From positions 25,926-89,925 of the forward strand of contig OMWH01000002.1 of assembly GCA_900314755.1 (NCBI GenBank): a stretch of DNA of 64,000 nt, written 5' to 3'. Below are positions 3,223-21,037 of the stretch, one piece after another (within the stretch, counting starts at the first letter, position 1; every line of letters begins with the position of its first letter). Made by a program: the position numbers and the translations under genes. The notes under the pieces were generated by a model. The model saw only the letters and a program-made list of their open reading frames with translations, searched no databases and was not told the DNA's origin. Source of the stretch: an uncultured Prevotellaceae bacterium (GTDB lineage Bacteria > Bacteroidota > Bacteroidia > Bacteroidales > Bacteroidaceae).

Positions 3223-3223
3223 A

Positions 3224-4033: not shown

Positions 4034-4084
4034 TCAAATAATTTTGAATATCTCTTTTTTTATTCGTATCTTTGCAAACGCATT

Positions 4085-5194
4085 ATGGAGAATAACAGTA
4101 TATTACAGAAACTGGACGGACTGGAAGCCCGCTTTGAGGAGGTATCTACACTGATTACCGACCCTAATGTGATAGCCGACCAGAACCGTTTCGTGAAACT
4201 TACGAAGGAATATAAGGATTTGGGCGACATCATGGATGCCCGCAAACGCTATATTGCCTGTCTGAATAGTATCAAAGAGGCAAAAGACATCCTTGCCAAT
4301 GAGGACGATGCCGAAATGAAGGAGATGGCTCGTGAGGAACTTGCCGAAAACGAAGCGTTACAACCCAAGCTGGAGGAGGAAATCAAAATTGCCCTTATTC
4401 CGAAGGACCCCGAGGACGCCAAGAACGTGCAGATGGAAATCCGTGCGGGAACTGGTGGTGATGAGGCGTGTCTGTTTGCTGGCGATTTGTTTAAGATGTA
4501 TAAGAGTTTTTGTGACTCGAAAGGGTGGCAACTCGCTGTTACCAGTGTCTCAGAGGGAGCAGTGGGCGGTTATAAGGAAATCGACTTCGCCGTGAGCGGT
4601 GCGGATGTCTACGGTACTTTGAAATATGAATCAGGAGTTCACCGTGTTCAGCGTGTGCCTGCTACGGAGACGCAGGGTCGAATGCACACTTCTGCAGCCA
4701 CTGTCGCTGTACTTCCTGAAGCTGACAAGTTTGAGGTTCATATCAACGAGGGAGAGATTAAATGGGACACTTTCCGAAGCAGTGGTGCCGGTGGGCAGAA
4801 TGTTAACAAGGTGGAGTCTGGTGTTCGCCTGCGTTATATGTGGAAAAATCCCAATACGTGTGAGACGGAGGAGATACTTATTGAATGTACTGAGACACGT
4901 GACCAGCCGAAGAACAAAGAACGTGCCCTCTCGCGCTTGTACACTTTTATATATGACAAGGAGCACCAAAAATATATGGACGATATCGCTTCACGTCGAA
5001 AGACACTGGTATCTACTGGTGACCGTTCGGCGAAGATTCGAACCTATAACTTCCCACAAGGACGTGTGACAGATCACCGCATTGGTTATACTACTCACGA
5101 CTTACAAGGTTTCCTCGGCGGTGACATCCAGCCCATGATAGATGCACTGACCGTTGCTGAAAATGCAGAGCGCATGAAAGAATCAGAACTATAA
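4085..5194 (+). CDS. prfA: Peptide chain release factor 1
   Basis: GGQ motif ([10 protein letters not shown]), [24 protein letters not shown]. Confidence 0.97.
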
Positions 5195-5198
5195 GATT

Positions 5199-6053
5199 AT
5201 GAATAGACAAGAGTTAATACAGCAAATCAAAGAGAAACAATCGTTTCTCTGCGTAGGTCTGGACACAGACATCAACAAGATTCCCCAGTGCATCATTGAG
5301 GAAGCAAGGGCTAAGGATGGAGAAGATTATATCTTCAGAGCTCTCTGTGAGTTTAACGCCCTCATCATTGATGCGACAGCACCCTATTGTGTCGCCTACA
5401 AGCCCAATCTTGCCTTTTATGAGGCATACGGTGTAGACGGCATTCTTGCCTTTGAGGCAACTATCGACTACTTAAAGGAGGAATATCCTAACCACTTTGT
5501 CATCGCTGATGCCAAGCGTGGGGATATAGGCAACACCTCAAAGATGTATGCCAAGACTTTCTTTGAAGAATATGATGTCGACGCACTGACCGTTGCACCT
5601 TATATGGGCGAAGATTCTGTGACGCCCTTCCTCGGCTATGATAACAAATGGGTCATTCTACTGGCATTGACCTCGAATAAAGGTTCGCTTGACTTTCAGT
5701 TGACGGAAGACAAAAATGGCGTTCGCTTGTTTGAGAAAGTCCTAAAACAAAGTCAGCAGTGGGGTAATGATGAGAATATGATGTATGTTGTAGGAGCCAC
5801 CCAGGGACGTATGTTTGAGGACATCCGTAAAGTAGCCCCAACCCATTTCCTGCTTGTTCCAGGTGTCGGAGCACAAGGAGGCAGTTTACAGGAAGTATGC
5901 CAATACGGTATGACAAAAGACTGCGGGTTGCTTGTTAATTCTTCACGCGGTATTATTTATGCTAGCAATGGAGAATACTTTGCTGAGGTAGCCGCCCAAA
6001 AAGCCAAAGAGCTGCAAGAGCAGATGGCAGAAGAAATAAAGAAGAGGATGTAA
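5199..6053 (+). CDS. pyrF: Orotidine-5'-phosphate decarboxylase
   Basis: [40 protein letters not shown]. Confidence 0.96.
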
Positions 6054-6061
6054 GAATCATC

Positions 6062-6754
6062 TTACGGCAAAGGTTTTACATAGCGCATCTCATGAAGGAT
6101 GCGCTTTTGTCTTTTTAAGACATAAGCACTAGGTCTTGCGGAATTATAGCGTAAAGGATTAGGTAATGTGGCGGCAATCAACGCACACTCCGCACTAGTT
6201 AATTGGGAGGCGGTTTTATGAAAATGCCATTCTGCTACAGCATCAACACCATAGATTCCATCCCCCATCTCTATGGAATTCAAATAGACTTCCATAATAC
6301 GCTGTTTCGACCACATCAGCTCTATCAGTGCTGTAAAATAAACCTCAAAGCCTTTTCGTAACCAAGAGCGACCTGGCCATAGAAAAACATTCTTTGCCGT
6401 CTGCTGAGAGATGGTAGAGGCACCTAACTTCCGTTTCTCTGGGTGCTTGAGATTACGGATAGCAGCATGTTCTATCGCTTTATAGTCAAACCCATGATGG
6501 TCCAGAAAACGCGCATCCTCACTTCCCATTACAGCTAGTGACATAGAGGGAGAAATTTCCTCAAAGGGTACCCAATGGTGATGTAACGTCAGATCTTTAC
6601 CCTCTGATATTTGTTCACCTAGACGAATGAACATCAAGGGTGTGAACCAGACAGGAACCCAACGTAATACGACCACAGAAAGAATAGTGGAGGCAAAAAA
6701 AGCCACCACTATCCACATGAAAAATCTTTTAATCTTATGTAGTAATGTTTTCAT
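6062..6754 (-). CDS. mtgA: Monofunctional biosynthetic peptidoglycan transglycosylase
   Basis: EDARFLDHHGFD, GASTISQQTAKNVFL, RK..E, YLNSIEMG; N-terminal TM helix. Confidence 0.93.
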   Translation of the reverse strand: MKTLLHKIKRFFMWIVVAFFASTILSVVVLRWVPVWFTPLMFIRLGEQISEGKDLTLHHHWVPFEEISPSMSLAVMGSEDARFLDHHGFDYKAIEHAAIRNLKHPEKRKLGASTISQQTAKNVFLWPGRSWLRKGFEVYFTALIELMWSKQRIMEVYLNSIEMGDGIYGVDAVAEWHFHKTASQLTSAECALIAATLPNPLRYNSARPSAYVLKRQKRILHEMRYVKPLP

Positions 6755-7422
6755 TACTGAAGTGTACCTGCTTCAGCCTTTTGGATCATCTCCTTGCTGG
6801 CATACATGTATACTTCCACGCGACGGTTCTGCTGACGACCTGCAGCAGTAGAGTTATCGGCAACAGGATTTGTTGAACCTTGTCCCTCTACACTCTTAAT
6901 CTGCTTAGCCTGAACACCACATGAACGAAGATAGTTGTTTACGCTATTGGCACGATTAACTGACAATGGCTGGTTAATAGCATCGCTACCAGTGTTATCA
7001 GTATGACCGATGATAGCTACATCACAGTCTGTATTGGAGTTCAACACACGGGCAAACTCTGCGAGAGAGTTCTTCGCACTAGTGCTAAGATCAGCCTTAC
7101 CAGTAGCGAAAAGAATACCTGAGTCAAAGGTTACCTTTACTGCATCCAGACCATTGGTGTCCTTAACAGTCTCCACCTGGGCGTTCTGAACCTGCTGAGC
7201 CTGCTGTTTAGCCTTATCCATTTTCTTACCGATAATAGCGCCAGCACCAGCACCAACAGCACCGCCAACAGCAACACCCACTGCAGTATTACCAGCTATA
7301 GCACCAATAATACCACCCAATAAAGCACCGCCACCGGCACCAATACCTGCACCCTTCTGGGTGTTGTTACAAGCAAAGAGCATTCCTACGCAAAGTAACA
7401 AAGAAACAATTTTAATTTTCAT
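6754..7422 (-). CDS. OmpA-family lipoprotein with glycine zipper
   Basis: Lipobox LFAC, Gly-zipper, GHTDNTG, QNRRVE OmpA_C motifs. Confidence 0.9.
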   Translation of the reverse strand: MKIKIVSLLLCVGMLFACNNTQKGAGIGAGGGALLGGIIGAIAGNTAVGVAVGGAVGAGAGAIIGKKMDKAKQQAQQVQNAQVETVKDTNGLDAVKVTFDSGILFATGKADLSTSAKNSLAEFARVLNSNTDCDVAIIGHTDNTGSDAINQPLSVNRANSVNNYLRSCGVQAKQIKSVEGQGSTNPVADNSTAAGRQQNRRVEVYMYASKEMIQKAEAGTLQ

Positions 7423-7547
7423 ATTACATTTAATTTAAATATGGTGATAATTTTGAGGCAAAGATACAAATTAATTTTGAACTTGGTGATTATATTTCAT
7501 AATTATTTCGTAATTTTGCACCAAATTTTGAAAATTGAAGTAATTTT

Positions 7548-9029
7548 ATGGCAAAAGAACTCAAAGAAATGACCAAAAGAGCTGACAATTATAGTCAGTG
7601 GTATAACGACTTGGTGGTGAAGGCCGACCTTGCTGAGCAGTCAGCAGTGCGCGGCTGCATGGTCATCAAGCCATACGGCTATGCTATCTGGGAGAAAATG
7701 CAGCAGCAGTTAGATAAGATGTTTAAGGAGACTGGTGCTCAGAATGCCTATTTCCCACTTCTCATCCCAAAGTCGTTCCTCAGCCGCGAGGCAGAACATG
7801 TAGAGGGATTCGCCAAGGAGTGTGCCGTCGTGACCCACTATCGCCTGCGTGCCAAGGAGGACAAAAGCGGTGTAGAGGTTGATCCTGCCGCAAAATTGGA
7901 AGAGGAACTAATTGTTCGTCCCACTTCTGAGACAATTATCTGGAACACCTATAAAAACTGGATTCACTCTTGGCGCGACCTGCCTTTGATGTGCAACCAA
8001 TGGTGTAATGTTATGCGCTGGGAAATGCGTACCCGTCCTTTCCTCCGCACCTCTGAGTTCTTGTGGCAGGAGGGCCATACCGCCCATGCCACCAAGGAGG
8101 AAGCTGAGCAGGAAGCACAGAAGATGCTAGGCGTATACGCTAAGTTCGCTGAAGAGTGGATGGCTGTTCCTGTACTTCAGGGCGTGAAAAGTGAGACAGA
8201 GCGTTTTGCCGGTGCACTTGACACGTACACCATTGAGGCAATGATGCAAGACGGTAAGGCTTTGCAGAGCGGTACTTCCCATTTCCTCGGTCAAAACTTT
8301 GCTAAGGCTTTTGAGGTCACCTATTTAAATAAAGAGAATAAGCCGGAATATGTCTGGGCTACATCATGGGGCGTATCCACCCGGTTAATCGGTGCACTCA
8401 TTATGACTCACTCCGATGACAACGGTTTAGTACTTCCCCCACGTCTTGCTCCTATCCAGGTCGTCATCATCCCTATTGCCAACAAGCCAGAACAGATGGA
8501 GATTGTCAACAAGGAGGTACAACCCATCATTGAGGAGCTACGCTCCAAAGGCATCACCGTGAAGTTTGACGATTCTGACAACAAGCGTCCCGGTTTTAAG
8601 TTTGCTGATTATGAATTGAAAGGTGTACCTGTTCGCTTAGTACTCGGAGCTCGTGACTTAGAGAGTGGTACGATTGAGGTGATGCGTCGTGACACTCTGG
8701 AAAAAGAGACCCGCCCAGTGGAAGATATTGCCCAGTATGTAGAGCAACTGTTGGAAGATATACAGAAAAACATCTTCGAGAAAGCACGCAAGTATCGTGA
8801 TGAGCATGTCTATGTATGTGACAACTACGAGGAATTTAAAGAGCGTGTAAAAGACGGTGGCTTTTTCCTTTGTCACTGGGATGGTACTGCAGAGACAGAG
8901 GCAAAAATCAAAGAAGAGACTCAAGCAACAATTCGTTGTGTGCCTTTTGCTTACGAGCAGACTCCCGGAACAGACATGGTCAGTGGCAAACCCGCAAAAT
9001 ATCGTGTTATTATTGCCCGCAGCTATTAG
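7548..9029 (+). CDS. proS: Proline--tRNA ligase (archaeal/eukaryote-like type typical of Bacteroidetes)
   Basis: [45 protein letters not shown]. Confidence 0.97.
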
Positions 9030-9049
9030 TATTGTACGAAAAATCAATA

Positions 9050-9107
9050 AATTACAGAAACTTCTGGTCAAAACATTTGGTAATGACCAGAAGTTTTTGT
9101 AATTTTG
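9050..9107. promoter_or_regulatory. 21-bp inverted repeat (probable proS terminator) overlapping the rpsA promoter
   Basis: AATTACAGAAACTTCTGGTCA (9050-9070) and TGACCAGAAGTTTTTGTAATT (9084-9104), 1 mismatch. TTTG 9076-9079, 20-nt spacer, TAATTTTG 9100-9107. Confidence 0.7.
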
Positions 9108-9185
9108 CAGCCGATTTGCGGAAACATGCCGCAATTACAGTTCACATAAAGTCCAACTTTATTAATTTACAAACAATTTTTAATT

Positions 9186-10967
9186 ATGTCAGAATTAACA
9201 AAGAACGTCCAGCCATTGAACGACTTCAACTGGGAAGAGTTTGAGAATGGCATGGCAGTAAACGTCAGCAAGGAAGAGCTTGACAAAGCGTATGATGAGA
9301 CGCTGAACAAAGTCAGCGAGCATCAGGTTGTCGACGGTAAAGTAATCAGTGTCGACAAGAAAGAGGTAGTCGTAAACATCGGCTATAAGAGCGACGGTAT
9401 CATACCCGCTTCTGAATTCCGTTACAACCCCGATTTGAAAGTGGGTGACACCGTAGAGGTTTATGTAGAGAACGCAGAAGATAAGAAGGGGCAGCTCGTC
9501 CTCTCACACAAAAAGGCTCGTCTCTCTAAGAGTTGGGATCGTGTCAATGCTGCTCTTGACAACGAGGAAATCGTTCAGGGTTACATCAAGTGCCGCACGA
9601 AGGGCGGTATGATTGTTGACGTATTCGGTATCGAGGCATTCTTGCCCGGTAGCCAGATTGACGTTCACCCCATACGTGACTATGATCAGTTCGTAGGCAC
9701 AAACATGGACTTCAAGATTGTGAAGATCAATCAGGAGTTCCGCAACGTTGTTGTCTCTCACAAAGCCCTTATTGAGGCTGAGTTGGAGGCTCAGAAGAAA
9801 GAAATTATCGGCAAGCTGGAGAAGGGTCAGATTCTTGAGGGTACCGTTAAGAACATCACTTCCTATGGTGTATTCGTTGACCTCGGTGGTGTTGACGGAC
9901 TCATTCACATCACCGATCTCTCTTGGGGTCGCGTAGACGATCCTCATAAGGTAGTTGAGCTTGACCAGAAGATTAATGTCGTTATTCTCGACTTCGATGA
10001 TGAGAAGAAGCGCATCGCCCTCGGTCTGAAGCAGCTCACTCCACATCCATGGGATGCACTGGATGCTGACCTGAAGGTTGGTGACCATGTGAAAGGTAAG
10101 GTTGTCGTTATCGCTGACTATGGCGCATTCGTTGAGATTCAGCCTGGTGTAGAGGGTCTGATTCACGTATCTGAGATGTCTTGGAGCCAGCACCTTCGTT
10201 CCGCTCAGGAGTTCCTGAAAGTGGGTGACGAAGTAGAGGCTGTTATCCTGACCCTCGACCGTGACGAGCGTAAGATGTCTCTCGGTATCAAGCAGTTGAA
10301 GGAAGACCCATGGGAAGCTATCGAGGTTAAATATCCTGTTGGCAGCAAGCACACTGCAAAGGTTCGCAACTTCACCAACTTTGGTGTATTCGTTGAACTG
10401 GAAGAGGGTGTTGATGGTCTGATTCATATTAGTGACCTCTCTTGGACCAAGAAGGTTAAGCATCCTTCTGAGTTCACTCAGGTTGGTGCGGAGATTGATG
10501 TTGTCGTTCTTGATATTGACAAGGAGAATCGCCGTCTCTCTCTCGGTCACAAGCAGTTGGAGGACAATCCTTGGGATGTATTCGAGGCTAAGTACACCGT
10601 TGGCTCTATTCACGAGGGTAAGATCATCGAATTGCTCGAGAAGGGTGCTGTTGTATCCCTCGACAAGGATGTTGAGGGATTTGCCACTCCTAAGCACCTC
10701 GTTAAGGAGGATGGCTCACAGGCACAGCTCAATGAGGAACTCCCCTTCAAGGTTATTGAGTTCAACAAGGACTCTAAGCGCATCATCCTGTCTCACAGCC
10801 GTACCTTCGAGGATCCTCAGCGTGAGGAGAAGAAGGCTGCTGCCAAGAAGACACGTGCTGCCAAGAAGGACGATACTCCAAAGATTGAGAATGTCGCTGC
10901 CAGCACCACACTCGGTGACATCGACGTACTCGCAGAATTGAAGGCTAAGATGGAGAAGGGCGAGTAA
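9186..10967 (+). CDS. rpsA: 30S ribosomal protein S1
   Basis: Six S1 repeats (FGVFVEL, DGLIHISDLSW); strong codon bias. Confidence 0.98.
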   Translation: MSELTKNVQPLNDFNWEEFENGMAVNVSKEELDKAYDETLNKVSEHQVVDGKVISVDKKEVVVNIGYKSDGIIPASEFRYNPDLKVGDTVEVYVENAEDKKGQLVLSHKKARLSKSWDRVNAALDNEEIVQGYIKCRTKGGMIVDVFGIEAFLPGSQIDVHPIRDYDQFVGTNMDFKIVKINQEFRNVVVSHKALIEAELEAQKKEIIGKLEKGQILEGTVKNITSYGVFVDLGGVDGLIHITDLSWGRVDDPHKVVELDQKINVVILDFDDEKKRIALGLKQLTPHPWDALDADLKVGDHVKGKVVVIADYGAFVEIQPGVEGLIHVSEMSWSQHLRSAQEFLKVGDEVEAVILTLDRDERKMSLGIKQLKEDPWEAIEVKYPVGSKHTAKVRNFTNFGVFVELEEGVDGLIHISDLSWTKKVKHPSEFTQVGAEIDVVVLDIDKENRRLSLGHKQLEDNPWDVFEAKYTVGSIHEGKIIELLEKGAVVSLDKDVEGFATPKHLVKEDGSQAQLNEELPFKVIEFNKDSKRIILSHSRTFEDPQREEKKAAAKKTRAAKKDDTPKIENVAASTTLGDIDVLAELKAKMEKGE

Positions 10968-10992
10968 TCCCCTACTCCTTCCAATAAACAAA

Positions 10993-11024
10993 AAGAGGAT
11001 GTGTCTATTTTTACACATCCTCTT
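10993..11024. terminator. Intrinsic (bidirectional-type) terminator after rpsA
   Basis: AAGAGGATGTGT-CTATTTTT-ACACATCCTCTT, 12-bp stem. Confidence 0.85.
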
Positions 11025-11561
11025 CTTATTTTCATTATTCACATGCTGTTGTCCTTTGAACTGTTTGCCATTCTTGTGATTGTCATGGTCATCATTTCTC
11101 TTACTGCCAAAGATAAGACAGAACCTCTGAAAGGCTACGGGAAAGGCAATGGGTAGGTACGTCAGCGGGAATGGGCGAATAAGTTCGGGTAATCGACAAA
11201 ATCGCTTTGCTTGCAAAAATTGTTCAGTGAAACTGTCGTCATAACCTAACATGTTTAAACGTCCGCTGCAAAATTAATAGAAGTTAAAAATGTCTTTATT
11301 TATGGCGTTTTCTGGATATAGTAGAGGTATTGTGACAAAAAAATAACTAACTTTGCTGTCGCAGACTACACTACCGCTTGTATGGATAGGCAGGACGCAT
11401 ATATACTGATTAGTGTTTACAAATGCTGACTTGACTTTCCCAAACTTCGCAAACTTGGAAAGTGGATGAGGTGATGTAAGAGGCCCACACTTTTCTTTAT
11501 ATATCCTCCAATAGATATTAACACTCCAGTTTTGGGCTTGGCTGGCATATTTATATATAAT

Positions 11562-12296
11562 ATGTCTGAGGGAAGGGTTTGCCCGTACTGTAAAAACGAG
11601 CTTGCTGATGACAAGGGTGGTACTGCTACTAAGGCCGTGAATTGGGCTTTGACTGTAGCAGGAGATTTTGCTCTGACATCTTTAAACATTAAAGGCTCAT
11701 TCAGTGGTGGACAAGTTCTGCCTGTACCTATGAAATGCCATAATTGTGGCCGAAGATATAGTGACGCATGGGGAAGCTTGTCTATGAAAAAGGAATATTC
11801 ATTACGATACCTTTTAGACAACCTTAGACGAAATTACGAACCAAAATATATAAGCGAGGACAAGGAAACAACGGATAAACTGTATAGGGAAAGAAATGAA
11901 AAGATGCTGCAAGATTTGCAGAAAATATTAAATATAAACTTGTCTGAGGCTGTTACGGAAGAATTTTTGCAAACTCATGGTTATGACGCTTGTAATTACC
12001 TCTTAAAAGAAATTGGAGAAGATAAACCACTTAAAGAACTTTTTCGATACAATACAAAAGAAACGCTTTTCCCAATAATAAACAAGATAATTAAAAGTAA
12101 AGGGGATAAGGAAAATTTGCCTTGCCATATAAATTATAAGCACAAGATGAAAGATCTTGGCGTTACTGGTTTTTTTACATCAGGTACTTTCTTGACTGAA
12201 TTAAGAAAGTGTTATGGTGATTTGCCGGATATACCATACCCAGACGATAATATTATGTTAGGCAATTATATCTCAAAAGTCCTATCCTCTTTATGA
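11562..12296 (+). CDS. Hypothetical protein with N-terminal zinc-ribbon-like CPYC...CHNC
   Basis: ORF 11532-12296; likely ATG 11562 after an AT-rich tract. Two CxxC pairs. Promoter box TAACTTTG at 11348-11355. Confidence 0.7.
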   Translation: MSEGRVCPYCKNELADDKGGTATKAVNWALTVAGDFALTSLNIKGSFSGGQVLPVPMKCHNCGRRYSDAWGSLSMKKEYSLRYLLDNLRRNYEPKYISEDKETTDKLYRERNEKMLQDLQKILNINLSEAVTEEFLQTHGYDACNYLLKEIGEDKPLKELFRYNTKETLFPIINKIIKSKGDKENLPCHINYKHKMKDLGVTGFFTSGTFLTELRKCYGDLPDIPYPDDNIMLGNYISKVLSSL

Positions 12297-12306
12297 TTTT
12301 CAATGA

Positions 12307-12347
12307 GAGTCGGACGTTTTTTGTCATACTAGCGAAATAATTTTGCC
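12307..12347 (+). promoter_or_regulatory. Promoter with conserved upstream operator, copy 1
   Basis: GAGTCGGAC-GTT-TTTTGTC-N12-TAATTTTGCC, 17 nt before ATG 12365. Confidence 0.75.
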
Positions 12348-12364
12348 AGGCATAAATAAAAAAC

Positions 12365-13780
12365 ATGGAAGAGAAAAGAATTATATTAGGCATAGATGTT
12401 GATGATGGAAATGTTTTCAATTCCTACATTAAATCAGCTGTTTCGCAAGCAGAGATAGAGCTGTTGACGCTAGACGAATCCATAGAATCAATTAAATCAA
12501 TAAAGCCTAATTGCGACAAAACAGATTATGTTTTAGCTGCAAGTTCTGGGGCAATATGTGGTATAATTGACATATTTCTCGTAGGCAAGCCTGGTGAATC
12601 TGTATTAGGAGGTATCACTGACAAATGGTTTGAAAAACGAACTTGTGATTTTGCTAAATTATGTGGTTGGAAAGGAAATGACAAAAACCCCGTAAAGTCG
12701 GCAATAGGTTTTTTAGAGAGAAAATTTAAAGTTCCTTATGACCAGAGAGGATGTGGGGATGCTGGGGCTTTCATATACAATCTTACCCCTTCAAACCATC
12801 ACTTCAAGTCTTTGGCTCACAACCCGTCATTGCTTGGATTGTTTTTCTCTATTTTAGACCAATTCACAAATACTTCTCATTTTATATCTGAAGGTAAACT
12901 TATCGAGTTGGAGGAGGCTGATGATAAATTTCAGCTAAGAGGGAATAGCGTTATCAGTAAGTTTTGGTGCGGATTTGTGAACTGGTTTGGGCATCTTATG
13001 TCTGATGTGTCTGGAGCGTCAGGAAGTAAAACTAGAGGGATGGGAATACCATCGCCACTATGGACTTGGACTAACAGTGTTATCGCTATAAAAGCAAAGC
13101 TAAATCTCCCTATTAGTAAATTCGACAAGGATATAAATGAGTTTGCAATAAAAATATTTGAAGAGGGTTATGATACCAGATTCCAAGCCACACAAGTAAT
13201 ACCAGTATTGATAAATGAGTTTGTGGTTAGATTGTTTTATGCGATTAGGAGGCTTCTGAATTACTATTCCCACACAAATAAAGAAGAACGCTCTTTGAAA
13301 ACTGCATGGAAAGCATGTGAACCTTTCACCAATCCTACAGTGAAAAGAATGTTGCTGGTTGCTCATAGTACATTCTGTCTCATAGATATAGGAGAAGCTA
13401 CTGTAATAGGCTTTGCTACTGCTCCAGGTTCCTTTAATGCAAAGGAATTTCTTATGCACTTAAATATCGCAGGGATAGGGAGATTGTCTTTTTCTTTATA
13501 TGGCGAGGCAAAGATGCGGATTAATTACCGCAACGCAGAATTGGCAGCACAATATACCCAAAAAGAGAAACATATTGTCGAAAGATACATAGAAGGTCTA
13601 AATACTCTCAAAGTTCTTTATGATGACAGAGAGTATTTTACCTTCGTAGATGACCTAAAGATCAATAATTATATTGAAGCATTTGGTAAATCTGTGGAAT
13701 TGGCAAAGCTAAGAAATGCTCCAGTTAAATATGAATCTAAACAATCAATAGATGACTACTTTAATCCCAAACAGCAATGA
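12365..13780 (+). CDS. Hypothetical membrane-associated protein, possible metal-dependent hydrolase
   Basis: 471-aa ORF with hydrophobic helices, KVPYD, NHHFKSLAH and GHLMSD. ATGA overlap with the next gene. Confidence 0.8.
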   Translation: MEEKRIILGIDVDDGNVFNSYIKSAVSQAEIELLTLDESIESIKSIKPNCDKTDYVLAASSGAICGIIDIFLVGKPGESVLGGITDKWFEKRTCDFAKLCGWKGNDKNPVKSAIGFLERKFKVPYDQRGCGDAGAFIYNLTPSNHHFKSLAHNPSLLGLFFSILDQFTNTSHFISEGKLIELEEADDKFQLRGNSVISKFWCGFVNWFGHLMSDVSGASGSKTRGMGIPSPLWTWTNSVIAIKAKLNLPISKFDKDINEFAIKIFEEGYDTRFQATQVIPVLINEFVVRLFYAIRRLLNYYSHTNKEERSLKTAWKACEPFTNPTVKRMLLVAHSTFCLIDIGEATVIGFATAPGSFNAKEFLMHLNIAGIGRLSFSLYGEAKMRINYRNAELAAQYTQKEKHIVERYIEGLNTLKVLYDDREYFTFVDDLKINNYIEAFGKSVELAKLRNAPVKYESKQSIDDYFNPKQQ

Positions 13781-14892
13781 TTATGAGCAAGAAAAAAAAT
13801 AAACTTCAAGAAGCAGCTGAAAAAGTTAAGGCTGAGGTTGAACTTACTAATAGTAAGATCTCCGAGTTGGGCAATTATTCATATAGTCTCAATAATGTAT
13901 TAAACATCATACAGACTCAGTTTGATAAAATACGAAATATCCCAAGTGATAAACATATTGAGTATGACAAGATAAAGAAAGCCAGACTAACATGGACGCG
14001 TGAAGTTGAAAAAATAGAGGCCAATTACAAATCCTCTCAGACTATAAATGTTAGTTCAGGAGCAGCAGGAGCCGCAACTGGAGTCGGTGTTGTAACACTA
14101 GCTCCAACCGCAGCAATGAGTATTGCTACCACATTTGGTGTGGCTTCAACTGGAACAGCTATTTCCTCTCTAAGTGGAGCAGCTGCTACCAATGCGGCAT
14201 TAGCTTGGTTGGGCGGAGGAACATTGGCCGCTGGTGGCGGTGGAATGGCTGGAGGTTCTGCTCTTCTTGCTTTAGCAGGGCCTGTTGGCTGGTCTATTGC
14301 AGGTGTAGCCTTGTTAGGGGGTGGTATAATGTTTTGGCTTACATCATCCGACAAGAAAAAGTTGGAGGAGATCTATTGCTTGATTAGTGAAAGAGATATT
14401 AAGTCGTATGATTTGGCTATTGTTGAGTTGAATGAACGCATAACAAGAATTCAACAAGAGACTAAACTGCTTAATGATGCTATTGTTGAAATAGGGTCTT
14501 TTGGTACTGACTATACACAAATGAGCGAAAATCAGCAATATACGCTTGGGACATATCTTAATCAAATGATTTCTTCAACCCAACTTTTGATCAACCCAAT
14601 AATGGGACTCCAACCAAATTATTCAGAAAATGATTTTGAAAAATACTTATCTTTTCATAGAGTAGAGCCAAAGTATCGTGAAAAGAAAATAAAGAAGCTG
14701 GTAATATACATGGCAAATCTTCTGTTCGGCATAGAAACAGACGAGAAAGGTCGTAAGTTGCTTGCTAAATCATACAGAAAAAACAAAGAGTTTCTTAAAG
14801 ACATGAAATTAGAGAAGAAAGATGTTGATATAGAAATTCTAAATACTGTAGATGATGCTATAAAGTATAAGGAGGAATTGTCAAAGAAATAG
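13777..14892 (+). CDS. Hypothetical coiled-coil protein with long Gly/Ala-rich hydrophobic hairpin
   Basis: 371 aa; central STGTAISSLSGAAATNAALAWLGGGTLAAGGGGMAGG...GPVGW flanked by charged helical regions. Confidence 0.8.
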   Translation: MIMSKKKNKLQEAAEKVKAEVELTNSKISELGNYSYSLNNVLNIIQTQFDKIRNIPSDKHIEYDKIKKARLTWTREVEKIEANYKSSQTINVSSGAAGAATGVGVVTLAPTAAMSIATTFGVASTGTAISSLSGAAATNAALAWLGGGTLAAGGGGMAGGSALLALAGPVGWSIAGVALLGGGIMFWLTSSDKKKLEEIYCLISERDIKSYDLAIVELNERITRIQQETKLLNDAIVEIGSFGTDYTQMSENQQYTLGTYLNQMISSTQLLINPIMGLQPNYSENDFEKYLSFHRVEPKYREKKIKKLVIYMANLLFGIETDEKGRKLLAKSYRKNKEFLKDMKLEKKDVDIEILNTVDDAIKYKEELSKK

Positions 14893-14900
14893 TTTTCAAT

Positions 14901-15800
14901 ATGTCGCAGCTAAAGAAATGCCTTTATATCATTGACCTGCTTAGACGGAGGGGGGCTATGTCGCTGAATGAAATCAATGAATCATTCAGGTATTCTCCTT
15001 TGTACGATAAGAACATAGAACCTCGTACCTTCGCCCGATACAAAGACTTCATTGCCCTGAACTTTCCATATTACATAGAGTTCAACAATAGGACGAAGAA
15101 GTATGAGCTGTTTCGTGACAAGCCGCTATATGGTGAGGACAGTTCTCTCTACGACTATTTGTTGTCTGCCTACCATATACAAAGTATCACAGAACTTGCC
15201 ATAAAACACCAGGACAAGATAATGACGGCAGAAGTTCCAACGGGAGTAGAGAACGTACATATCATTCTGGAAGCCATCGACAAGCAGCGAGGTATAGAGT
15301 GTACCTACTATTCATTTACCAAAGAGTCTGCCAAAGAACAGACCATAATCCCCTGTTTCCTTAAAACCTGGGAAGGTCGTTGGTATCTGGTTGCCGAACC
15401 AGCAAACCAGCAACATGAACCTGCGGTATATGCCCTTGAACGCATGGATAACATCAGACTTACAGATAAGACCATGCGCCCAACCAAGAAGATTACACCA
15501 GAGAAATACTTTGACGGCAGTTTTGGTATCAACCATTCAGATGACCAGAAACCAGAGATAATAAGGATTAAGGTTTACGGTTCACAGGTTGCTTATGTCA
15601 GGACGCTCCCAATCCATGAATCTCAGAAAGAAGTTGAGACAACAGAGGACTGGAGCATCTTTGAGTATCGGCTTGTTCCATGCTTCAACTTGTATCAGGA
15701 GTTATTATGGCATCGTGAGAAAATTGAAGTCTTGGAACCTCTCTATGTCAGGGAAGAAATGAAAAACATTGTAGAGGCATTGCATAATATATATAAATAG
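14901..15800 (+). CDS. WYL-domain transcriptional regulator (HTH-WYL-WCX)
   Basis: N-terminal winged-HTH-like region, GRWYLVA, YALERM, YFDGSFGI, IEVLEPLYVREEM (WCX). Confidence 0.9.
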   Translation: MSQLKKCLYIIDLLRRRGAMSLNEINESFRYSPLYDKNIEPRTFARYKDFIALNFPYYIEFNNRTKKYELFRDKPLYGEDSSLYDYLLSAYHIQSITELAIKHQDKIMTAEVPTGVENVHIILEAIDKQRGIECTYYSFTKESAKEQTIIPCFLKTWEGRWYLVAEPANQQHEPAVYALERMDNIRLTDKTMRPTKKITPEKYFDGSFGINHSDDQKPEIIRIKVYGSQVAYVRTLPIHESQKEVETTEDWSIFEYRLVPCFNLYQELLWHREKIEVLEPLYVREEMKNIVEALHNIYK

Positions 15801-15845
15801 GTATGCTATGGTTCGTTATTTCTTTTATTTTCAAAATTTATTTTC

Positions 15846-15886
15846 GAGTCGGACACCTTTTGTCTGTTACCAAAACTAACTTTGCC
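15846..15886 (+). promoter_or_regulatory. Promoter with conserved upstream operator, copy 2
   Basis: GAGTCGGAC-ACC-TTTTGTC-N12-TAACTTTGCC, 33 nt before ATG 15920; spacing identical to copy 1. Confidence 0.75.
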
Positions 15887-15919
15887 CTCGAAATTAGTAA
15901 TTAATAGGAGAAATAAGTT

Positions 15920-16657
15920 ATGAATCAAGACAAAGACCTCGCGTTTCTCGCAACGTGTAAGAATGAAGATCTACGTACATTGTGCGACATTCTCACTTAT
16001 AACAAGAATGGGGAGGTTCGCATGAGTGAACAGCTTACAAACTCTGATGTCTACATCAACTGTTATCCAGACAAGATGAACCTCATGTCAAGGCAAATCG
16101 GGGAAGAACTGCGTAAGTTTGGCAGCAATACAGTTAAGACTTTCTGCCGTCAGGGTGAAGCAGACAGTTACGAAACCATTGTTCGCCGTGTATGTAAGCG
16201 AATGAAGGTGAATGTCGGTAGCAGCAATGACACTCAAACGATGGAGCGTGAACTGCTGACAACCATCTGTGAGCAATCTGCCAGTAAGATGTCCGATGAA
16301 GAACTGAGAAACATTGCGGACAAGGCAGGTATTCCCCATAAGTCTCTCAATAAGCAGATGCTGACATACGTTGTGATGATGGCAATTCGCAGAAACACCT
16401 ATCTTATGACTGAAATGCTCTATTATGTAACAACAAGTATTGCAGAAATGCTTCTTGGTCGTTGGATAACAATGATGGGTATGGGTACAGTAGGTCGCTA
16501 TCTTGGTATGGCAGCAGGGCCAATAGGCTGGGCTGCTTTGGCTGGTTGGACTATCAGCGATATTGCATCCCCGGCATATCGTGTGATGATACCAGCCGTG
16601 ATAATGGTTGCATCTATGCGCTTCCGTCAGACTGCATTGTTAACTCAAAAGATTTAG
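15920..16657 (+). CDS. YaaW / UPF0174 (DUF3944 N-terminal) family protein
   Basis: DKDLAFLATCKNEDLRTLCDILT, EELRKFGSN, GPIGW, SPAYRVMIPAV resemble E. coli YaaW (DSDLDFLQHCSEEQL, ELQHFGGD, SAYRVTIPAV), recalled from memory. Confidence 0.8.
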   Translation: MNQDKDLAFLATCKNEDLRTLCDILTYNKNGEVRMSEQLTNSDVYINCYPDKMNLMSRQIGEELRKFGSNTVKTFCRQGEADSYETIVRRVCKRMKVNVGSSNDTQTMERELLTTICEQSASKMSDEELRNIADKAGIPHKSLNKQMLTYVVMMAIRRNTYLMTEMLYYVTTSIAEMLLGRWITMMGMGTVGRYLGMAAGPIGWAALAGWTISDIASPAYRVMIPAVIMVASMRFRQTALLTQKI

Positions 16658-16662
16658 TGACT

Positions 16663-17445
16663 ATGGAAGCAAGAGACATCATGCACCCAGAGGATGCTAA
16701 AGCGATTCAGATGTTAAAACGCATAAAGGGTTTTGATGCCTTAGTCCGTGCCTCAATGGAACATGGCTACGAGAAAATCTTCCGTGGAGAGAATCTTGGA
16801 TGTATGGTAAGAGTGAATGCTCAGAATAGCCACAACCTATACACGGCTTTCAAAGGTGTTGTTCAAAAGGTTAGAATAGCAGAACCAGAGTTCTACATCT
16901 ATAATGATCCTGTTATGAATGCTTATACCTACGGAGAGACCAACACCTTCATTGCCGTTAGCAACTCACTCGTAGAACGGCTTACTATTGACGAGGTTAG
17001 AAGCGTCATAGCCCATGAGTGTGGGCATATTCTCTGCAAGCACACTTTCTACAACACCTTGCTACGGACGATAGAGGAACTTGGGCTTTGGTTTCAGCTT
17101 ATATCATATACAGCTTTTGCTCCTATTCTGATGGGATTGCAATATTGGAGCAGGAAAAGTGAGTATTCGGCTGATCGCTGTGCCGCTGCTGTAGTGGGTG
17201 AACGGACATTCCAGACTTCAATGCTGAAACTTACAACAGGATTGGCTGAGATCCAGGGGAATCCCTATCAACTTGTGGAACAGGCTAAGGAGTACCATCG
17301 TTTCGTTAACGATTCATGGTGGAACCGTATTCAGCAGAATTGCCGTGTGGCTTTTAATAGTCATCCTCAGATGTGTGAACGTGCCTGGGAGATCGACCGT
17401 TGGAAGAACTCATGGGCATATCGGAAATTGTATATGTCAAATTGA
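16663..17445 (+). CDS. M48 family zinc metallopeptidase (HtpX/Ste24-like)
   Basis: HEXXH (AHECGH), NAYTYG, WSRKSEYSADR. Start moved from 16462 to ATG 16663, just after the upstream stop. Confidence 0.9.
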   Translation: MEARDIMHPEDAKAIQMLKRIKGFDALVRASMEHGYEKIFRGENLGCMVRVNAQNSHNLYTAFKGVVQKVRIAEPEFYIYNDPVMNAYTYGETNTFIAVSNSLVERLTIDEVRSVIAHECGHILCKHTFYNTLLRTIEELGLWFQLISYTAFAPILMGLQYWSRKSEYSADRCAAAVVGERTFQTSMLKLTTGLAEIQGNPYQLVEQAKEYHRFVNDSWWNRIQQNCRVAFNSHPQMCERAWEIDRWKNSWAYRKLYMSN

Positions 17446-17494
17446 CGGAACATTACAAAAACAAAATAATCCTGCTATCCCTGCTACAATGTGG

Positions 17495-17574
17495 GTGAAA
17501 TGCCGATGTATAAAGGGCGGAGCCTGTAGCACGATTGGGATTTATCCTGCTACAATGGTGCTACAACCCTGCTA
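17495..17574 (+). repeat. 80-bp direct repeat, copy 1
   Basis: GTGAAATGCCGATGTATAAAGGGCGGAGCCTGTAGCACGATTGGGATTTATCCTGCTACAATGGTGCTACAACCCTGCTA; 79/80 identical to 18921-19000. Confidence 0.95.
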
Positions 17575-17659
17575 TGACAAATTTTTTCTGGTTAAATTAC
17601 GACAATATAAGAATTCTTTTGTATATTTGCAAGCAAATAGAATTATCGTAGTATATACA

Positions 17660-18430
17660 ATGAAATTAGAGCATCTATACGAATTGATTGCCAACGAGGG
17701 CTTTACTGCTCTGACATTACAAGAAATAGATAACTACATAAAAGATATACAAAATGGGACAGAAGATTTTCCTCGATTCAATCTATCAGAGCATGCAGGA
17801 TTCTGCACGGCAGGTGCGTCTCTCATTGGGGCGTCCATCATCGCATGCTACGCGACAGCAAGCATTACAGCAAGTCGCAATGTTGAAGGCAGCCAAGGAA
17901 GCCCAGCAAACTGGGAAATAGACGAACGACAGGAGCAACTCATCGAGCAATGGGCTAAGGCTGCCAATTTGTGGGAGGATAACTCTGAGCAGATACTTGT
18001 AGATGAATTCGGTCCTATGATTGCTCAAGGAGCAGAGGCAAAGGTGTATTATAGCGATGGAAACACTTCGGTGGTAAAAGAGCGTACTTCCATCTATTCT
18101 ACTTGGCAAAAGGCACTTGATGCAATAGTATTGCATAATTGTCTCTTCCCTGAAACAGCCATGAAAGTTATTGGTTTTACTCGCGACAAAGACGGATTGA
18201 TGCGTATTGTACTGACACAGCCATACGTAAATTGTCTCCGATTGGCGACAAAGAAAGAAATAGACGATATGGTATTGGCAAAAGGATTTCGTGACAACTG
18301 GGACGGACAAGGAGTGAACTATGTCTCCGATCGTTTGGCACTTGAAGACATGCATCCTGCAAATGTTTTCATTGACACTGTGTCAGGAAAGCCAATTTGT
18401 ATTGATTGTATCGTGAAATTTGTGAAGTGA
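17660..18430 (+). CDS. Polyvalent-protein-type Ser/Thr/Tyr kinase (Kinase-PolyVal-like)
   Basis: QGAEAKVY (Gly loop), VVKE (Lys), EDMHPANV (catalytic loop), CIDC (DFG equivalent). Start moved to ATG 17660 after TATATTTG box. Confidence 0.78.
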   Translation: MKLEHLYELIANEGFTALTLQEIDNYIKDIQNGTEDFPRFNLSEHAGFCTAGASLIGASIIACYATASITASRNVEGSQGSPANWEIDERQEQLIEQWAKAANLWEDNSEQILVDEFGPMIAQGAEAKVYYSDGNTSVVKERTSIYSTWQKALDAIVLHNCLFPETAMKVIGFTRDKDGLMRIVLTQPYVNCLRLATKKEIDDMVLAKGFRDNWDGQGVNYVSDRLALEDMHPANVFIDTVSGKPICIDCIVKFVK

Positions 18431-18431
18431 T

Positions 18432-18468
18432 ACGACTGGCAGAGTAACATTTCTGCCAGTCGTTTTTT
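18432..18468 (+). terminator. Intrinsic terminator after kinase
   Basis: ACGACTGGCAGA-GTAACATT-TCTGCCAGTCGT followed by a T tract. Confidence 0.85.
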
Positions 18469-18560
18469 CCTACACGTAATTGTTGCCTTTTCTGTTTCTA
18501 ATACACGTACATTTAAATAAGCTTTATCTCGGCATCAATCACATAGATGTCGCCCTCGTC

Positions 18561-18671
18561 ATCGACAAGAACATTGCGAAGCGCTACGGCTTTACAGAAG
18601 AAGAACTTGACTTCATCATCAATTACGATATTAAGTATCGTATGGGTGATGAACTCAATGATAGTGAATAA
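18561..18671 (+). pseudogene. 3' remnant of a type IIG/Eco57I-like restriction-modification gene
   Basis: IDKNIAKRYGFTEEELDFIINYDIKYRMGDELNDSE* matches my recollection of the extreme C-terminus of such enzymes; no upstream gene body. Confidence 0.65.
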
Positions 18672-18686
18672 ATAATTGCTCCAAAA

Positions 18687-18718
18687 TTTGGAAGTTTGAA
18701 GAAAAGTTCCTATCTTTG
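18687..18718 (+). promoter_or_regulatory. Consensus Bacteroidetes promoter without an intact downstream gene
   Basis: TTTG 18687-18690, 20-nt spacer, TATCTTTG 18711-18718. Confidence 0.75.
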
Positions 18719-18920
18719 CACCCAGATGAGAGTTGCATATAGGCGCGATAATATCAAGCTCCGCAACCGTCGATTTATAAAGCCGTTGGTCGAGAACCTA
18801 CGGCTTTAATTCATTTATGATACTTTCAATCTCTCGGCGGGACTGCTCTTTAGCATTGACTACAACGGCCTCTCCATTAAACACTATGTTTAATTTTGCA
18901 TAAAAGATAGTGTAAATGGA

Positions 18921-19000
18921 GTGAAATGCCGATGTATAAAGGGCGGAGCCTGTAGCACGATTGGGATTTATCCTGCTACAATGGTGCTACAATCCTGCTA
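18921..19000 (+). repeat. 80-bp direct repeat, copy 2
   Basis: Matches 17495-17574 except one C/T. Confidence 0.95.
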
Positions 19001-19032
19001 CCAGACAGCGACTGTTTTTTGAGCGGTTTGCT

Positions 19033-19098
19033 TTTGGCTATAGCCGTTCAGTTGTTTGGCTGGAGCCGCACGGTTGTTTGGCTATAGCCGAACGGTTG
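19033..19098. repeat. 3 x 22-bp tandem repeat with palindromic GGCTATAGCC core
   Basis: TTTGGCTATAGCCGTTCAGTTG / TTTGGCTGGAGCCGCACGGTTG / TTTGGCTATAGCCGAACGGTTG. Confidence 0.9.
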
Positions 19099-19239
19099 AA
19101 AGGATGCTTCTAACTCCCTCGAAGGACGTACCTGATACCCCAACACCAGTAACCTGTTACCCCTACGCAAGGCATCTTTAACTGTGACCGGAGGCATCGG
19201 ACACTCTCGTCTTACAAAGCCTTAGGTTACGTTCATGAT

Positions 19240-19268
19240 GAGGATGTGTCAAAATAGGCACATCCTCT
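19240..19268 (-). terminator. Hairpin downstream of DUF3127 gene; inverted near-copy of the rpsA terminator
   Basis: GAGGATGTGTCAAAATAGGCACATCCTCT; its reverse complement is 27/29 identical to 10994-11022. Confidence 0.75.
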
Positions 19269-19344
19269 ATGAGACACAATAAGGCGGAAGACCTCACAGT
19301 CCTCCACCTTATTATATTATATAGGGCACCGTTAAAAGGTAATC

Positions 19345-19746
19345 CTAAAAGGGAAGGTCATCAGCACTACCCTCGCCTGCCGGTTCCTGTGCAGGAGGGA
19401 ACGGTGCGGTGGCATCCTGAGGAGCAGCCTGTGCTGGAGGGAACGGAGCCTGGGGGGCTGCAGCAACAGGAGCAGCACCACGAGTCACGTTATAGGCACG
19501 GATCTCGTTAAACCAACGTCCATTATACTCATGAGCATCAATGTCGAAGCTTACAGTCACCTCTTCACCATTCTGGATGTTAAACTGCTTGATACGGTCT
19601 TCTCCGAAAATTCGGAAGACACACTTACGAGGATACTGACCAGGAACCTCAATCACATATTCCTGCGACATCCAAGGATTTCCTGTACGTGACGACACGC
19701 CACTGTTTGCCGGAAGCACGGCAATAATCTTACCTGTTAATTCCAT
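19345..19746 (-). CDS. DUF3127 family protein (OB-fold, SSB-like acidic tail)
   Basis: MELTGKIIAVLP, SFDIDAHEYNGRWFNEIRAY, C-terminal DDLPF. Confidence 0.9.
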   Translation of the reverse strand: MELTGKIIAVLPANSGVSSRTGNPWMSQEYVIEVPGQYPRKCVFRIFGEDRIKQFNIQNGEEVTVSFDIDAHEYNGRWFNEIRAYNVTRGAAPVAAAPQAPFPPAQAAPQDATAPFPPAQEPAGEGSADDLPF

Positions 19747-19912
19747 AATAATTTATTCGTTATTAATTGTTGATTTTACGTTTCAGATTGCGAAATTACG
19801 AAAAATACTTTTAATTTGAGAATATTTTACGGAATATTTTTGCATTTGAACAAGTTATTTTGTATTTTTGTAGTCAATTTGAATGACTTAAAACATATAA
19901 ACGAAATAACTC

Positions 19913-21037
19913 ATGAGATTTACCGTATCAAGCACTGCGCTAAGCAGCAAACTTAATGCACTTTCCAGAGTCATTAACAGCAAGAACTCCTTGCCTATCT
20001 TAGCAGACTTTTTATTCGACATTCAAGACAACGTACTCCGCCTGACAGCCTCTGACAGCGAGAATGTGATGAACACGCAGGTAGAGTTAACCGACTGTGA
20101 CGGCAATGTCCGTTTTGCCATTGGTAACCACGACTTATTAGAAGCCGTTAAGGGATTTTCTGAGCAGCCAATCACCTTTGAAGTCAACCTGCAAGAGAAT
20201 TTGGTCAAAATCAGCTACCAGAATGGTATGTTCTCACTTCCCATAGAGAATGCCAATGAATATCCTCAGGCTCAGTCTGTTGGTGAAGGAGCCCATATCA
20301 TCAGCATCGCAAGCGGATTGCTGGCTGAAAATATTAACCGTTCGTTGTTTGCCACTGCTCAGGACGAGCTTCGTCCCGTCATGAACGGAATCTATTTTGA
20401 CCTTACCCCTGAGTGTCTTGCTATCGTTGCCTCTGACGGTCACAAATTAGTACGCAACAAGATTTTTACAATCCAAAGCGAACAACCCTCAGCATTCATC
20501 CTTCCTAAGAAGCCTGCTTCATTACTGAAGAACCTATTGCAGAAAGACGGAGGTGACGTTGAGATTCGTTTTGACGAGCGTAACGCACAGATCAGTTATG
20601 GAGACGGGCAGTTGATATGCCGTCTTATAGAAGGTCGTTATCCGAACTATAATTCCGTTATCCCACAAGGGAACCCCAATGTGCTGACTATTGACCGCCT
20701 TGGGCTTCTTGCCGCCCTTCGTCGTGTACAACCTTTTGCCAATGACTCCAGCAACTTAATCCGCTTCCATGTAGAAGGTGGTACATTACAGTTAGACGCT
20801 GAGGATTATGACTTCTCCAAAACAGCAACAGAACGCATGTCATGCGACTATAGCGGTCAGCCTATGAGCATTGGTTTCAAAGGAGCATCCTTCATAGAGA
20901 TTCTCAGCAACTTCGACTGTCAGGATGTGATTATCCAGCTTGCAGATCCTAGTCGTGCAGGTCTCGTCTTGCCATCAGAGCAGCCAGAGAATCAAGATGT
21001 ACTGATGCTGATGATGCCTATGCTCATCAATGATTAA
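19913..21037 (+). CDS. dnaN: DNA polymerase III beta clamp
   Basis: 374 aa; RPVMNGI, VASDGHKL, LIEGRYPNY, LMMPM. Confidence 0.97.
   Translation: MRFTVSSTALSSKLNALSRVINSKNSLPILADFLFDIQDNVLRLTASDSENVMNTQVELTDCDGNVRFAIGNHDLLEAVKGFSEQPITFEVNLQENLVKISYQNGMFSLPIENANEYPQAQSVGEGAHIISIASGLLAENINRSLFATAQDELRPVMNGIYFDLTPECLAIVASDGHKLVRNKIFTIQSEQPSAFILPKKPASLLKNLLQKDGGDVEIRFDERNAQISYGDGQLICRLIEGRYPNYNSVIPQGNPNVLTIDRLGLLAALRRVQPFANDSSNLIRFHVEGGTLQLDAEDYDFSKTATERMSCDYSGQPMSIGFKGASFIEILSNFDCQDVIIQLADPSRAGLVLPSEQPENQDVLMLMMPMLIND

Follow-up and report, generated by a model that had tools for sequence, protein, structure and literature searches.

WYL-domain regulators of bacterial defence islands have been studied in Proteobacteria. 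The characterised defence-linked members, BrxR and CapW, are repressors (PMC9122601, PMC9122589, PMC9122588, PMC11662680). CapW represses its targets and itself, and both CapW and BrxR of Vibrio cholerae are released by single-stranded DNA (ssDNA); on pEFER two BrxR boxes, R-BOX1 and R-BOX2, which are inverted repeats with a 5-bp spacer, belong to one defence island (same references). The DriD box of Caulobacter reads ATACGAC-N7-GTCGTAT (PMC9186387, PMC10853764). Furthermore, WYL genes are frequent neighbours of jukA, and JukA pairs with varied effectors (bioRxiv 10.1101/2022.09.17.508391). Bacteroidota, which dominate gut and rumen communities, differ in promoter architecture. Here we describe 64,000 nucleotides (nt) of an uncultured Prevotellaceae bacterium (Bacteroidota; GenBank assembly GCA_900314755.1, contig OMWH01000002.1, positions 25,926 to 89,925 of the forward strand), called the window below, in which a WYL gene is flanked by two copies of a combined promoter and operator.

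The motif GAGTCGGAC-N3-TTTTGTC-N12-TAANTTTGCC was present at 12307-12347 and 15846-15886 of the plus strand. Both copies were exact and had identical spacing, just as the original prediction from the letters of the window had stated. With up to 3 mismatches allowed these were the only matches to the 41-nt motif on both strands of the 64 kb, and 0 of 100 dinucleotide-preserving shuffles of the window gave any match. A search for further sites in the window was negative, the loose core pattern being at chance level with 1 match versus 1.8 expected. Start codons follow just 3' of the two copies at 12365 and 15920. What the copies have in common is the dyad and the -7 box; their flanks and spacers differ. 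The predicted GAC-N7-GTC dyad exists in both, yet the full symmetric element is longer and reads (GT)CGGACA-N5-TGTC[C/T]G(AC). Operator 2 is the good copy with 1 mismatch to CGGACA-N5-TGTCCG. Operator 1 is weaker; its promoter-proximal half is degenerate (TGTCAT), and 2 of the 15 consensus bases are mismatched. The two copies consist of the following elements:

12309..12329, plus strand: operator 1, an imperfect 21-bp dyad GTCGGACGTTTTTTGTCATAC with the core CGGAC-N7-GTC, centre 12319.
12338..12345, plus strand: -7 box of the first promoter (P_op1), TAATTTTG, then CC; the ATG at 12365 starts 19 nt past the end of the box.
15848..15868, plus strand: operator 2, a 21-bp dyad GTCGGACACCTTTTGTCTGTT with the core CGGACA-N5-TGTCTG, centre 15858.
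15877..15884, plus strand: -7 box of the second promoter (P_op2), TAACTTTG, then CC; the ATG at 15920 lies 35 nt past the end of the box.

One metatranscriptome contig of a related strain had a T-run 1 base shorter at operator 2 (15858), which would alter the dyad spacing. The variant could be genuine or due to misassembly of the homopolymer.

Metagenome contigs were scanned with the DNA pattern alone, GTCNGAC-N3-TTTTGTC-N12-TANNTTTG, which yielded 115 rumen and gut loci bearing the module. A further 4 were found through the WYL protein in a scan of genome contigs, so that 119 loci were examined. Positions that the pattern did not force were yet conserved among 101 distinct sites (G4 89, A8 84, G19 84, C38 92). 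Because such positions mirror each other in the dyad (pairs 3/19, 4/18 and 8/14 in the same sites) we concluded that the longer dyad is the real one. The consensus module has 37 bp, i.e. (GT)CGGACA-N5-TGTC[C/T]G(AC), then 10 nt, then TAAnTTTGC. The 10-nt spacer between dyad and -7 box carried almost no sequence information in the distinct sites. Thus, the constant distance is held by selection and not by recent common descent, as the spacer sequence is randomised. In the same loci 18 additional imperfect sites with a -7 box lay outside the search pattern, and the distance to the box was identical in 18 of 18. When k in CGGAC-Nk-GTC[C/T]G was varied between 3 and 12, the family turned up only at k=7; matches at N4-N6 or N9 were discarded as unrelated GC-rich repeats or coding sequence, and those at N11 were the same sites read again. 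The most divergent WYL clade (52% identity) had a symmetric operator variant, TCAGAC...GTCTGA, in which both halves were changed together. The conservation of dyad and -7 box at related loci, with start codons 19-39 nt downstream of the box (medians in the larger downstream gene clusters), agrees with the predicted nature of the motif as promoter plus operator.

Other origins of the palindrome were considered. Viral contigs contained neither a WYL relative nor a copy of the module, and a phage origin was rejected on these grounds. An Rfam search of 10900-20000 returned no family and a tRNA search no hit; a reading as RNA hairpin or terminator was dismissed because the sequence itself is conserved and not only the pairing. 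At locus L010 (4335-4510) there are GC-rich palindromes, GGGCGGAC-N6-GTCCGCCCC, repeated about 160 bp apart, which look like repetitive extragenic palindromic elements. They are unrelated to the operator, having a different spacing and no -7 box.

Both promoters have the -7 element of Bacteroidota sigma-A promoters, TAnnTTTG, near the start codon, and both are without the -33 TTTG 19-21 nt upstream of it; the bases in that place are GACGTT at site 1 and GACACC at site 2. A control set comprised 203 other TAnnTTTG boxes located 10-60 nt upstream of an open reading frame (ORF) of at least 100 amino acids (aa) in the same or related loci. These had a sharp TTTG peak at a gap of 19-20 nt, and 39% of the 203 had TTG at gap 18-22. 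On the other hand, TTG at gap 18-22 occurred in 0 of 100 operator promoters, whose sole TTTG was at gap 14 inside the operator. Thus, the dyad does occupy the canonical -33 place as had been proposed. The inner TTTG was rejected as a shifted -33 element since a TTTG at gap 14 was seen in just 1% of generic promoters. Because the -33 TT(T)G is missing in about 60% of ordinary candidate promoters too, its absence alone does not imply the need for an activator.

Setting the T of TA at -12 puts the presumed transcription start of P_op1 at ~12350 with a leader of ~15 nt before the ATG, and that of P_op2 at ~15889 with a leader of ~31 nt before the ATG at 15920. The metatranscriptomes consisted of assembled contigs only, which cross the promoters at low depth and without 5' ends. 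A sigma-70 style promoter and terminator scan was uninformative for Bacteroidota and gave no terminator between WYL and site 2.

The two sites are located in a stretch of low G+C content (35-40% versus ~45-55% elsewhere) between rpsA (9186-10967) and dnaN (19913-21037). Site 1 is predicted to drive the BnzB-like, PDC-M09A-like and WYL genes, and site 2, which lies 46 nt 3' of the WYL stop codon, would drive the JukA-like and M48 genes:

12365..13780, plus strand: cargo gene A, BnzB-like (component of the Bunzi defence system), 471 aa; PADLOC BnzB E=2.1e-106, no Pfam family.
13777..14892, plus strand: cargo gene B, PDC-M09A-like candidate defence protein, 371 aa; PADLOC PDC-M09A E=1.4e-69.
14901..15800, plus strand: WYL regulator, 299 aa, predicted winged helix-turn-helix (wHTH)-WYL-WCX; last gene of the P_op1 operon.
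15920..16657, plus strand: JukA-like sensor protein, 245 aa; PADLOC JukA 3.1e-48, Pfam DUF3944 at the N-terminus 5.3e-15.
16663..17445, plus strand: M48-family zinc peptidase, ATG 5 nt past the JukA-like stop; Pfam Peptidase_M48 2.3e-21, no PADLOC match.

The box of P_op1 is the sole TAnnTTTG on the plus strand between 12300 and 15876. Because no other such box lies between site 1 and the WYL gene, WYL is most simply expressed from its own operator-promoter in the window.

The WYL protein contains a WYL domain (PF13280, Pfam E=2.9e-11, residues 119-186) with an RWYL motif at 160-163 that is invariant or nearly so, and a WCX domain (PF25583, Pfam E=3.4e-08, residues 221-294). The PADLOC WYL model PDLC01457 spans residues 4-281. 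We found 1164 homologues at E<=1e-10, the relatives being from rumen and gut genomes of the Prevotella type. Overall identity in the family is 65-100%. The N-terminal 75 residues are strongly conserved and the stretch PRTFxRYKD within them is nearly invariant, as is the operator; R42, T43, F44, R46 and Y47 are invariant.

A homologue of the WYL subfamily was encoded in 51 of the 119 loci, many of which are only 1-5 kb long. When the ORFs were clustered, the JukA-like protein (54 loci), WYL (50) and M48 (45) ranked first to third, and among the frequent protein clusters no other regulator and no other DNA-binding or recombinase family recurred. A site on the same strand was present upstream of WYL in 43 of 50 WYL genes; 6 of the other 7 had less than 2 kb of upstream sequence, and the seventh is the WYL gene of L112 described below. 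As to the loci found through the WYL protein, all three with upstream sequence (L001, L002 and L003) had a same-strand site upstream of WYL, and L004 had a site downstream of it. The encoded WYL protein is therefore by far the best candidate for the binder as originally predicted, and judging from these sequence data it very probably binds the operator. Taken together, the motif is symmetric, kept in a fixed register, conserved, and associated with WYL genes and defence cargo.

Two loci differed in their WYL genes. At L112 (reverse strand, 2425-10375) WYL ends a same-strand operon of six genes (306, 650, 1020, 389, 143 and 138 aa), the head of which has no operator, and the module occurs only at the JukA-M48 promoter, so that WYL is left without its own operator there. 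At L014 a canonical site is followed 0.4 kb downstream by a gene (2549-3530) for a WYL-like protein that is very divergent (27-30% identity) and differs in its N-terminal helix-turn-helix.

In total 144 sites were found upstream of about 38 clusters of first genes. A JukA-like gene was the commonest (53 of the 144 sites), followed by WYL itself with 11. BnzB-like genes came first at 4 sites and an IetA-like AAA ATPase at 3; a Sel1-repeat protein, a PDC-M40B-like protein and a BnzA/LeoBC-like glycine-zipper protein had 2 each. PDC-M09A-like genes made up two separate clusters of 1 site each, and a radical-SAM protein was first at 1 site. Most of the remaining clusters, including the third largest with 9 sites, had no family match. 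JukA-like and M48 genes were paired in 45 loci. According to the original prediction a motif that is common upstream of unrelated housekeeping genes would not be a WYL operator; what we found downstream were defence-type cassettes and no evident housekeeping genes. The prediction that the regulon can be defined from sequence alone holds only for the 64-kb window with its two operons.

Comparison of strains by blastn revealed a variable cargo slot:

11552..14900, no strand: variable cargo slot; the flanks are shared between strains, the cassettes differ.

L103 is 98% identical to the window up to 11551, and L011 and L056 are 93% identical to it from exactly 14901, the WYL ATG, to 17453 just past the M48 stop (blastn). 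Strains that share the left flank or the WYL-JukA-M48 block carry different cargo in between, each with its own operator-promoter. From these homology breakpoints we concluded that 11552-14900 upstream of WYL is a hot spot for the swapping of defence cassettes between near-identical strains. Within the conserved 88-nt segment that precedes the slot (11464-11551) three DNA runs otherwise matching the window were without 2 bases at 11496, an indel polymorphism. The ORF at 11532-12296 ends 10 nt 5' of operator 1 and has an N-terminal zinc-ribbon-like motif (CPYC...CHNC) but no Pfam or PADLOC family. It lies within the variable slot and may be a further cargo gene.

We favour the view that a dimer of the WYL protein (299 aa, 14901-15800) would bind the palindrome, which would span about -39 to -23 of a sigma-A promoter of the Bacteroidota type. 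This promoter would have a strong -7 box, TAAnTTTGC, but lack a -33 element, the operator being in its position. One regulator would serve two operons in the window, its own with the BnzB-like, PDC-M09A-like and WYL genes and the adjacent one with the JukA-like and M48 genes; in related strains the module would head whichever defence cassette fills the slot upstream of WYL. Unliganded WYL on the operator would block RNA polymerase and keep the defence genes low, and negative autoregulation would hold the level of WYL steady. We infer that a ligand produced by phage attack or DNA damage, which is ssDNA in the studied relatives, would bind to the WYL domain and cause release. To this composite reading as a whole, repressor direction included, we assign a probability of about 0.5.

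The repressor direction is inferred from relatives and context. The WYL domain is collinear with those of BrxR (117-196 versus 121-198 of 295 aa) and CapW (118-187 versus 125-191 of 299 aa). On the DNA side the module resembles a repressor-type operator, since the palindrome of ~20 bp is found in promoters both of the defence cargo and of the operons with WYL. The self-expression of WYL from the operator-promoter fits negative autoregulation. Transcripts of JukA-M48 were low in rumen metatranscriptomes, about 20-50x below the neighbouring gene, which does not discriminate a repressor from an activator.

Several points weigh against the repressor reading. The sites of known WYL repressors lie across the -10 element or behind it (PMC9122601, PMC9122589, PMC9122588, PMC11662680), and the operator described here leaves the -7 box free. 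The distance from dyad to -7 box is invariant despite a randomised spacer, while a shift of 1-2 bases should not disturb a regulator that merely stands in the way of the polymerase. The centre of the dyad is asymmetric with a T-run on the promoter side only. The best sequence match in PDB was DriD, an activator (~2e-4 over the WYL-WCX part); the profile search against PDB sequences gave marginal values for BrxR (7qfz, E=0.0077) and CapW (9c5g, E=0.13), and the protein falls short of the BLASTP E<1e-5 that Picton et al. used for BrxR homology. The N-terminus had no Pfam HTH match and residues 1-107 had no match in PDB, i.e. no solved wHTH. A single-sequence structure model reached a predicted local distance difference test score (pLDDT) of 35 and was not used for a fold search; at this low confidence the N-terminus has a helix-helix-helix-strand-strand pattern. 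Finally, the association figures carry an ascertainment bias, as the motif itself served to find most of the loci.

The rigid register, the free -7 box and the asymmetric centre suggest a stereospecific contact with the polymerase. The same binder at the same site may work in the opposite direction, the WYL dimer being a ligand-dependent activator and the operator-promoter a hybrid promoter for sigma adaptation as with PafBC and SiwR. The proximal half-site would then be a -26 element that replaces the -33 contact, and transcription would start efficiently only with liganded WYL. We take this possibility seriously, but lean against it. The geometry is in its favour. The in vivo motif of PafBC, tGTCgg(N10)tA(N3)T, has the same core and register as TGTC[C/T]G-N10-TA(N2)TTTG, and SiwR is a homodimeric WYL activator that binds a 19-bp palindrome between -35 and -10 with an essential -26 region. 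A spacing that is rigid at more than 100 sites, 18 of them outside the search pattern, over a randomised spacer would be expected, as would the lack of -33 TT(T)G in all 100 operator promoters compared with its presence in 39% of generic ones, the untouched -7 box and a T-run that faces the polymerase side. The DriD box has the same GAC-N7-GTC core and an AT-rich centre, and DriD is the best PDB match.

Yet, BrxR and CapW, the defence-linked WYL regulators characterised, all repress, and our WYL protein has their short length. DriD has ~30 more residues before the aligned WYL-WCX part (the tagged chain allowed for), which would fit the helical bundle of DriD and PafBC. WYL is usually expressed only from the operator-promoter, so that an activator would form a pure positive-feedback loop, while PafBC is constitutively present and the SiwR gene is outside the operon that SiwR activates. 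In addition, JukA is described as an early-infection sensor, which must be present beforehand and needs basal expression. The frequent lack of a -33 element in ordinary candidate promoters, about 60% as noted, also takes weight from the argument. Of the activator-dependent promoter class in the original prediction the geometry stands, i.e. the match to the PafBC motif and to the SiwR -26 palindrome, whereas activation itself is the less probable direction in view of repressing relatives, BrxR/CapW-like collinearity and apparent negative autoregulation.

Explanations other than repressor or activator have, taken together, a small share in our estimate. If the palindrome were bound by another factor, or served mainly as a recombination or integration anchor for cassette swapping, the link to WYL would be one of synteny. 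Cargo upstream of WYL is indeed swapped with each cassette beginning with the module, contigs often break near the sites, 68 of 119 loci have no WYL on the available DNA, and the WYL gene of L112 follows six genes without an operator at their head. However, where WYL is missing the locus is mostly short or ends near the site, and no recombinase or other DNA-binding family recurs. Homology between strains breaks off at 11551 and resumes at the WYL ATG (14901), and neither point coincides with the palindrome. The conserved feature is a dyad of specific sequence at a fixed distance from a -7 box, and start codons follow 19-39 nt further on, which is the logic of a promoter. Thus, we consider this explanation improbable. 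The two copies might also resemble each other by chance, or stem from one promoter that was recently duplicated in place, and have no operator function; one may cite that the window holds just two copies and that both have generic promoter features (-7 box). This reading is effectively refuted by the shuffled sequences, by the conserved positions that the search pattern did not force, by flanks and spacers that differ while dyad and box are kept, and by the module at 115 independent metagenomic loci upstream of ~38 gene clusters.

Downstream of the M48 gene lies a further gene:

17661-18430: Kinase-PolyVal gene, own box TATATTTG at 17622.

It was transcribed 10-40x above JukA-M48 in rumen metatranscriptomes. 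Because of its own box and the stronger transcription we regard it as a separate unit. Four runs (X3, X4, X39 and X41) had flat depth and look like DNA. In one DNA run (X4) the depth was roughly doubled at 17484-17887, and contigs branch at 17455, 17554 and 17586; we concluded from both that the segment 17455-17900 is repeated or variable in the community. The highest metatranscriptome depth of the region was seen at 19019-19315, where one run averaged 71 and the depth rose to ~430 at 19251. This segment adjoins a small ORF at 19269-19511 and, on the minus strand, a gene with DUF3127 at 19345-19746. It has no Rfam match; a small RNA that has escaped annotation or a small gene with high expression may account for the depth.

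Defence islands in which a WYL regulator goes with an inverted-repeat operator are a known kind, to which the finding belongs, and the link between jukA and neighbouring WYL genes is likewise known (bioRxiv 10.1101/2022.09.17.508391). New are the phylum and its promoter type, the PafBC-like register, which is fixed and places the operator at -33, the place of WYL at the end of an operon with swappable cargo, and one operator common to many cassette types; among the papers retrieved in our literature searches none dealt with control by WYL proteins in Bacteroidota. The 37-bp module may be used as a search key for inducible defence cassettes in Prevotella-type genomes, where many of the ~38 first-gene families have no known function. 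The data pose the question whether the position of the operator predicts the direction of control in the WYL family, and whether control resembling sigma adaptation exists outside Actinobacteria. It is conceivable, though less likely than not, that the defence-island WYL protein of Bacteroidota is an activator in the style of PafBC and SiwR with the proximal half as a -26 element substituting for the -33 contact of sigma-A. If so, the module would be a portable regulator-dependent promoter that silences incoming, possibly toxic cassettes in the absence of the cognate WYL protein and a danger signal; sigma adaptation would extend outside Actinobacteria, and this would be the first activator among defence-linked WYL regulators.

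How does the locus compare with the known systems? With BrxR and CapW, which are dimeric, it shares the size of the regulator (about 300 aa), the location of the regulator gene within a defence island, an operator that is a palindrome of about 20 bp around a 5-bp centre, the presence of more than a single box in an island, self-control, the link to mosaic, swappable defence cargo and the collinear position of the WYL domain. It differs in the Bacteroidota host with its -33/-7 promoters and in the marginal sequence similarity. The operator of CapW overlaps the -10 and that of BrxR comes after it, whereas ours is at -33, fixed 10 nt from the -7 box. In addition, WYL is here the last gene of the cargo operon and neither first nor divergent, and one operator sequence is common to more than 100 loci and ~38 cargo types.

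The hybrid promoters of PafBC (RecA-NDp, PMC8635444) have TGTCnG exactly 10 nt before the TA of a -10-type element as seen here. Like the promoters of PafBC and of SiwR (PMC10693628), the module has no -35/-33 element, a rigid spacing and a WYL-domain regulator, and SiwR is a homodimer on a palindrome in the same promoter region. PafBC, on the other hand, is a heterodimer on a non-palindromic site (PMC8635444) and cannot bind DNA without RNA polymerase; here a single WYL gene goes with a palindrome, which is closer to the homodimeric SiwR. PafBC and SiwR are both actinobacterial activators of the DNA-damage response and not defence-island regulators.

DriD resembles the case at hand in being a WYL homodimer with a GAC-N7-GTC core, an A/T-rich centre and a copy of the box in its own promoter. 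Yet, DriD, like PafBC, has a helical bundle between its HTH and WYL domains and controls DNA-damage genes. The flanks are CGGACA/TGTCCG here and ACGACA in DriD, so that the module does not contain the CGAC-N7-GTCG of a DriD box upstream of a -35; the DriD sites precede the -35 at variable distances, 1 nt in one case and 17 nt in another, while our site replaces the -33 element. The main regulated gene is JukA-like with a DUF3944 N-terminus as in the Juk system against jumbo phages (bioRxiv 10.1101/2022.09.17.508391). In contrast to Juk (JukA/JukB) the partner is an M48 peptidase and not JukB, which places the pair outside Juk, and a shared promoter/operator is described only here and not in the preprint. 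The module has the geometry of the known WYL activators in the genomic context of the known WYL repressors.

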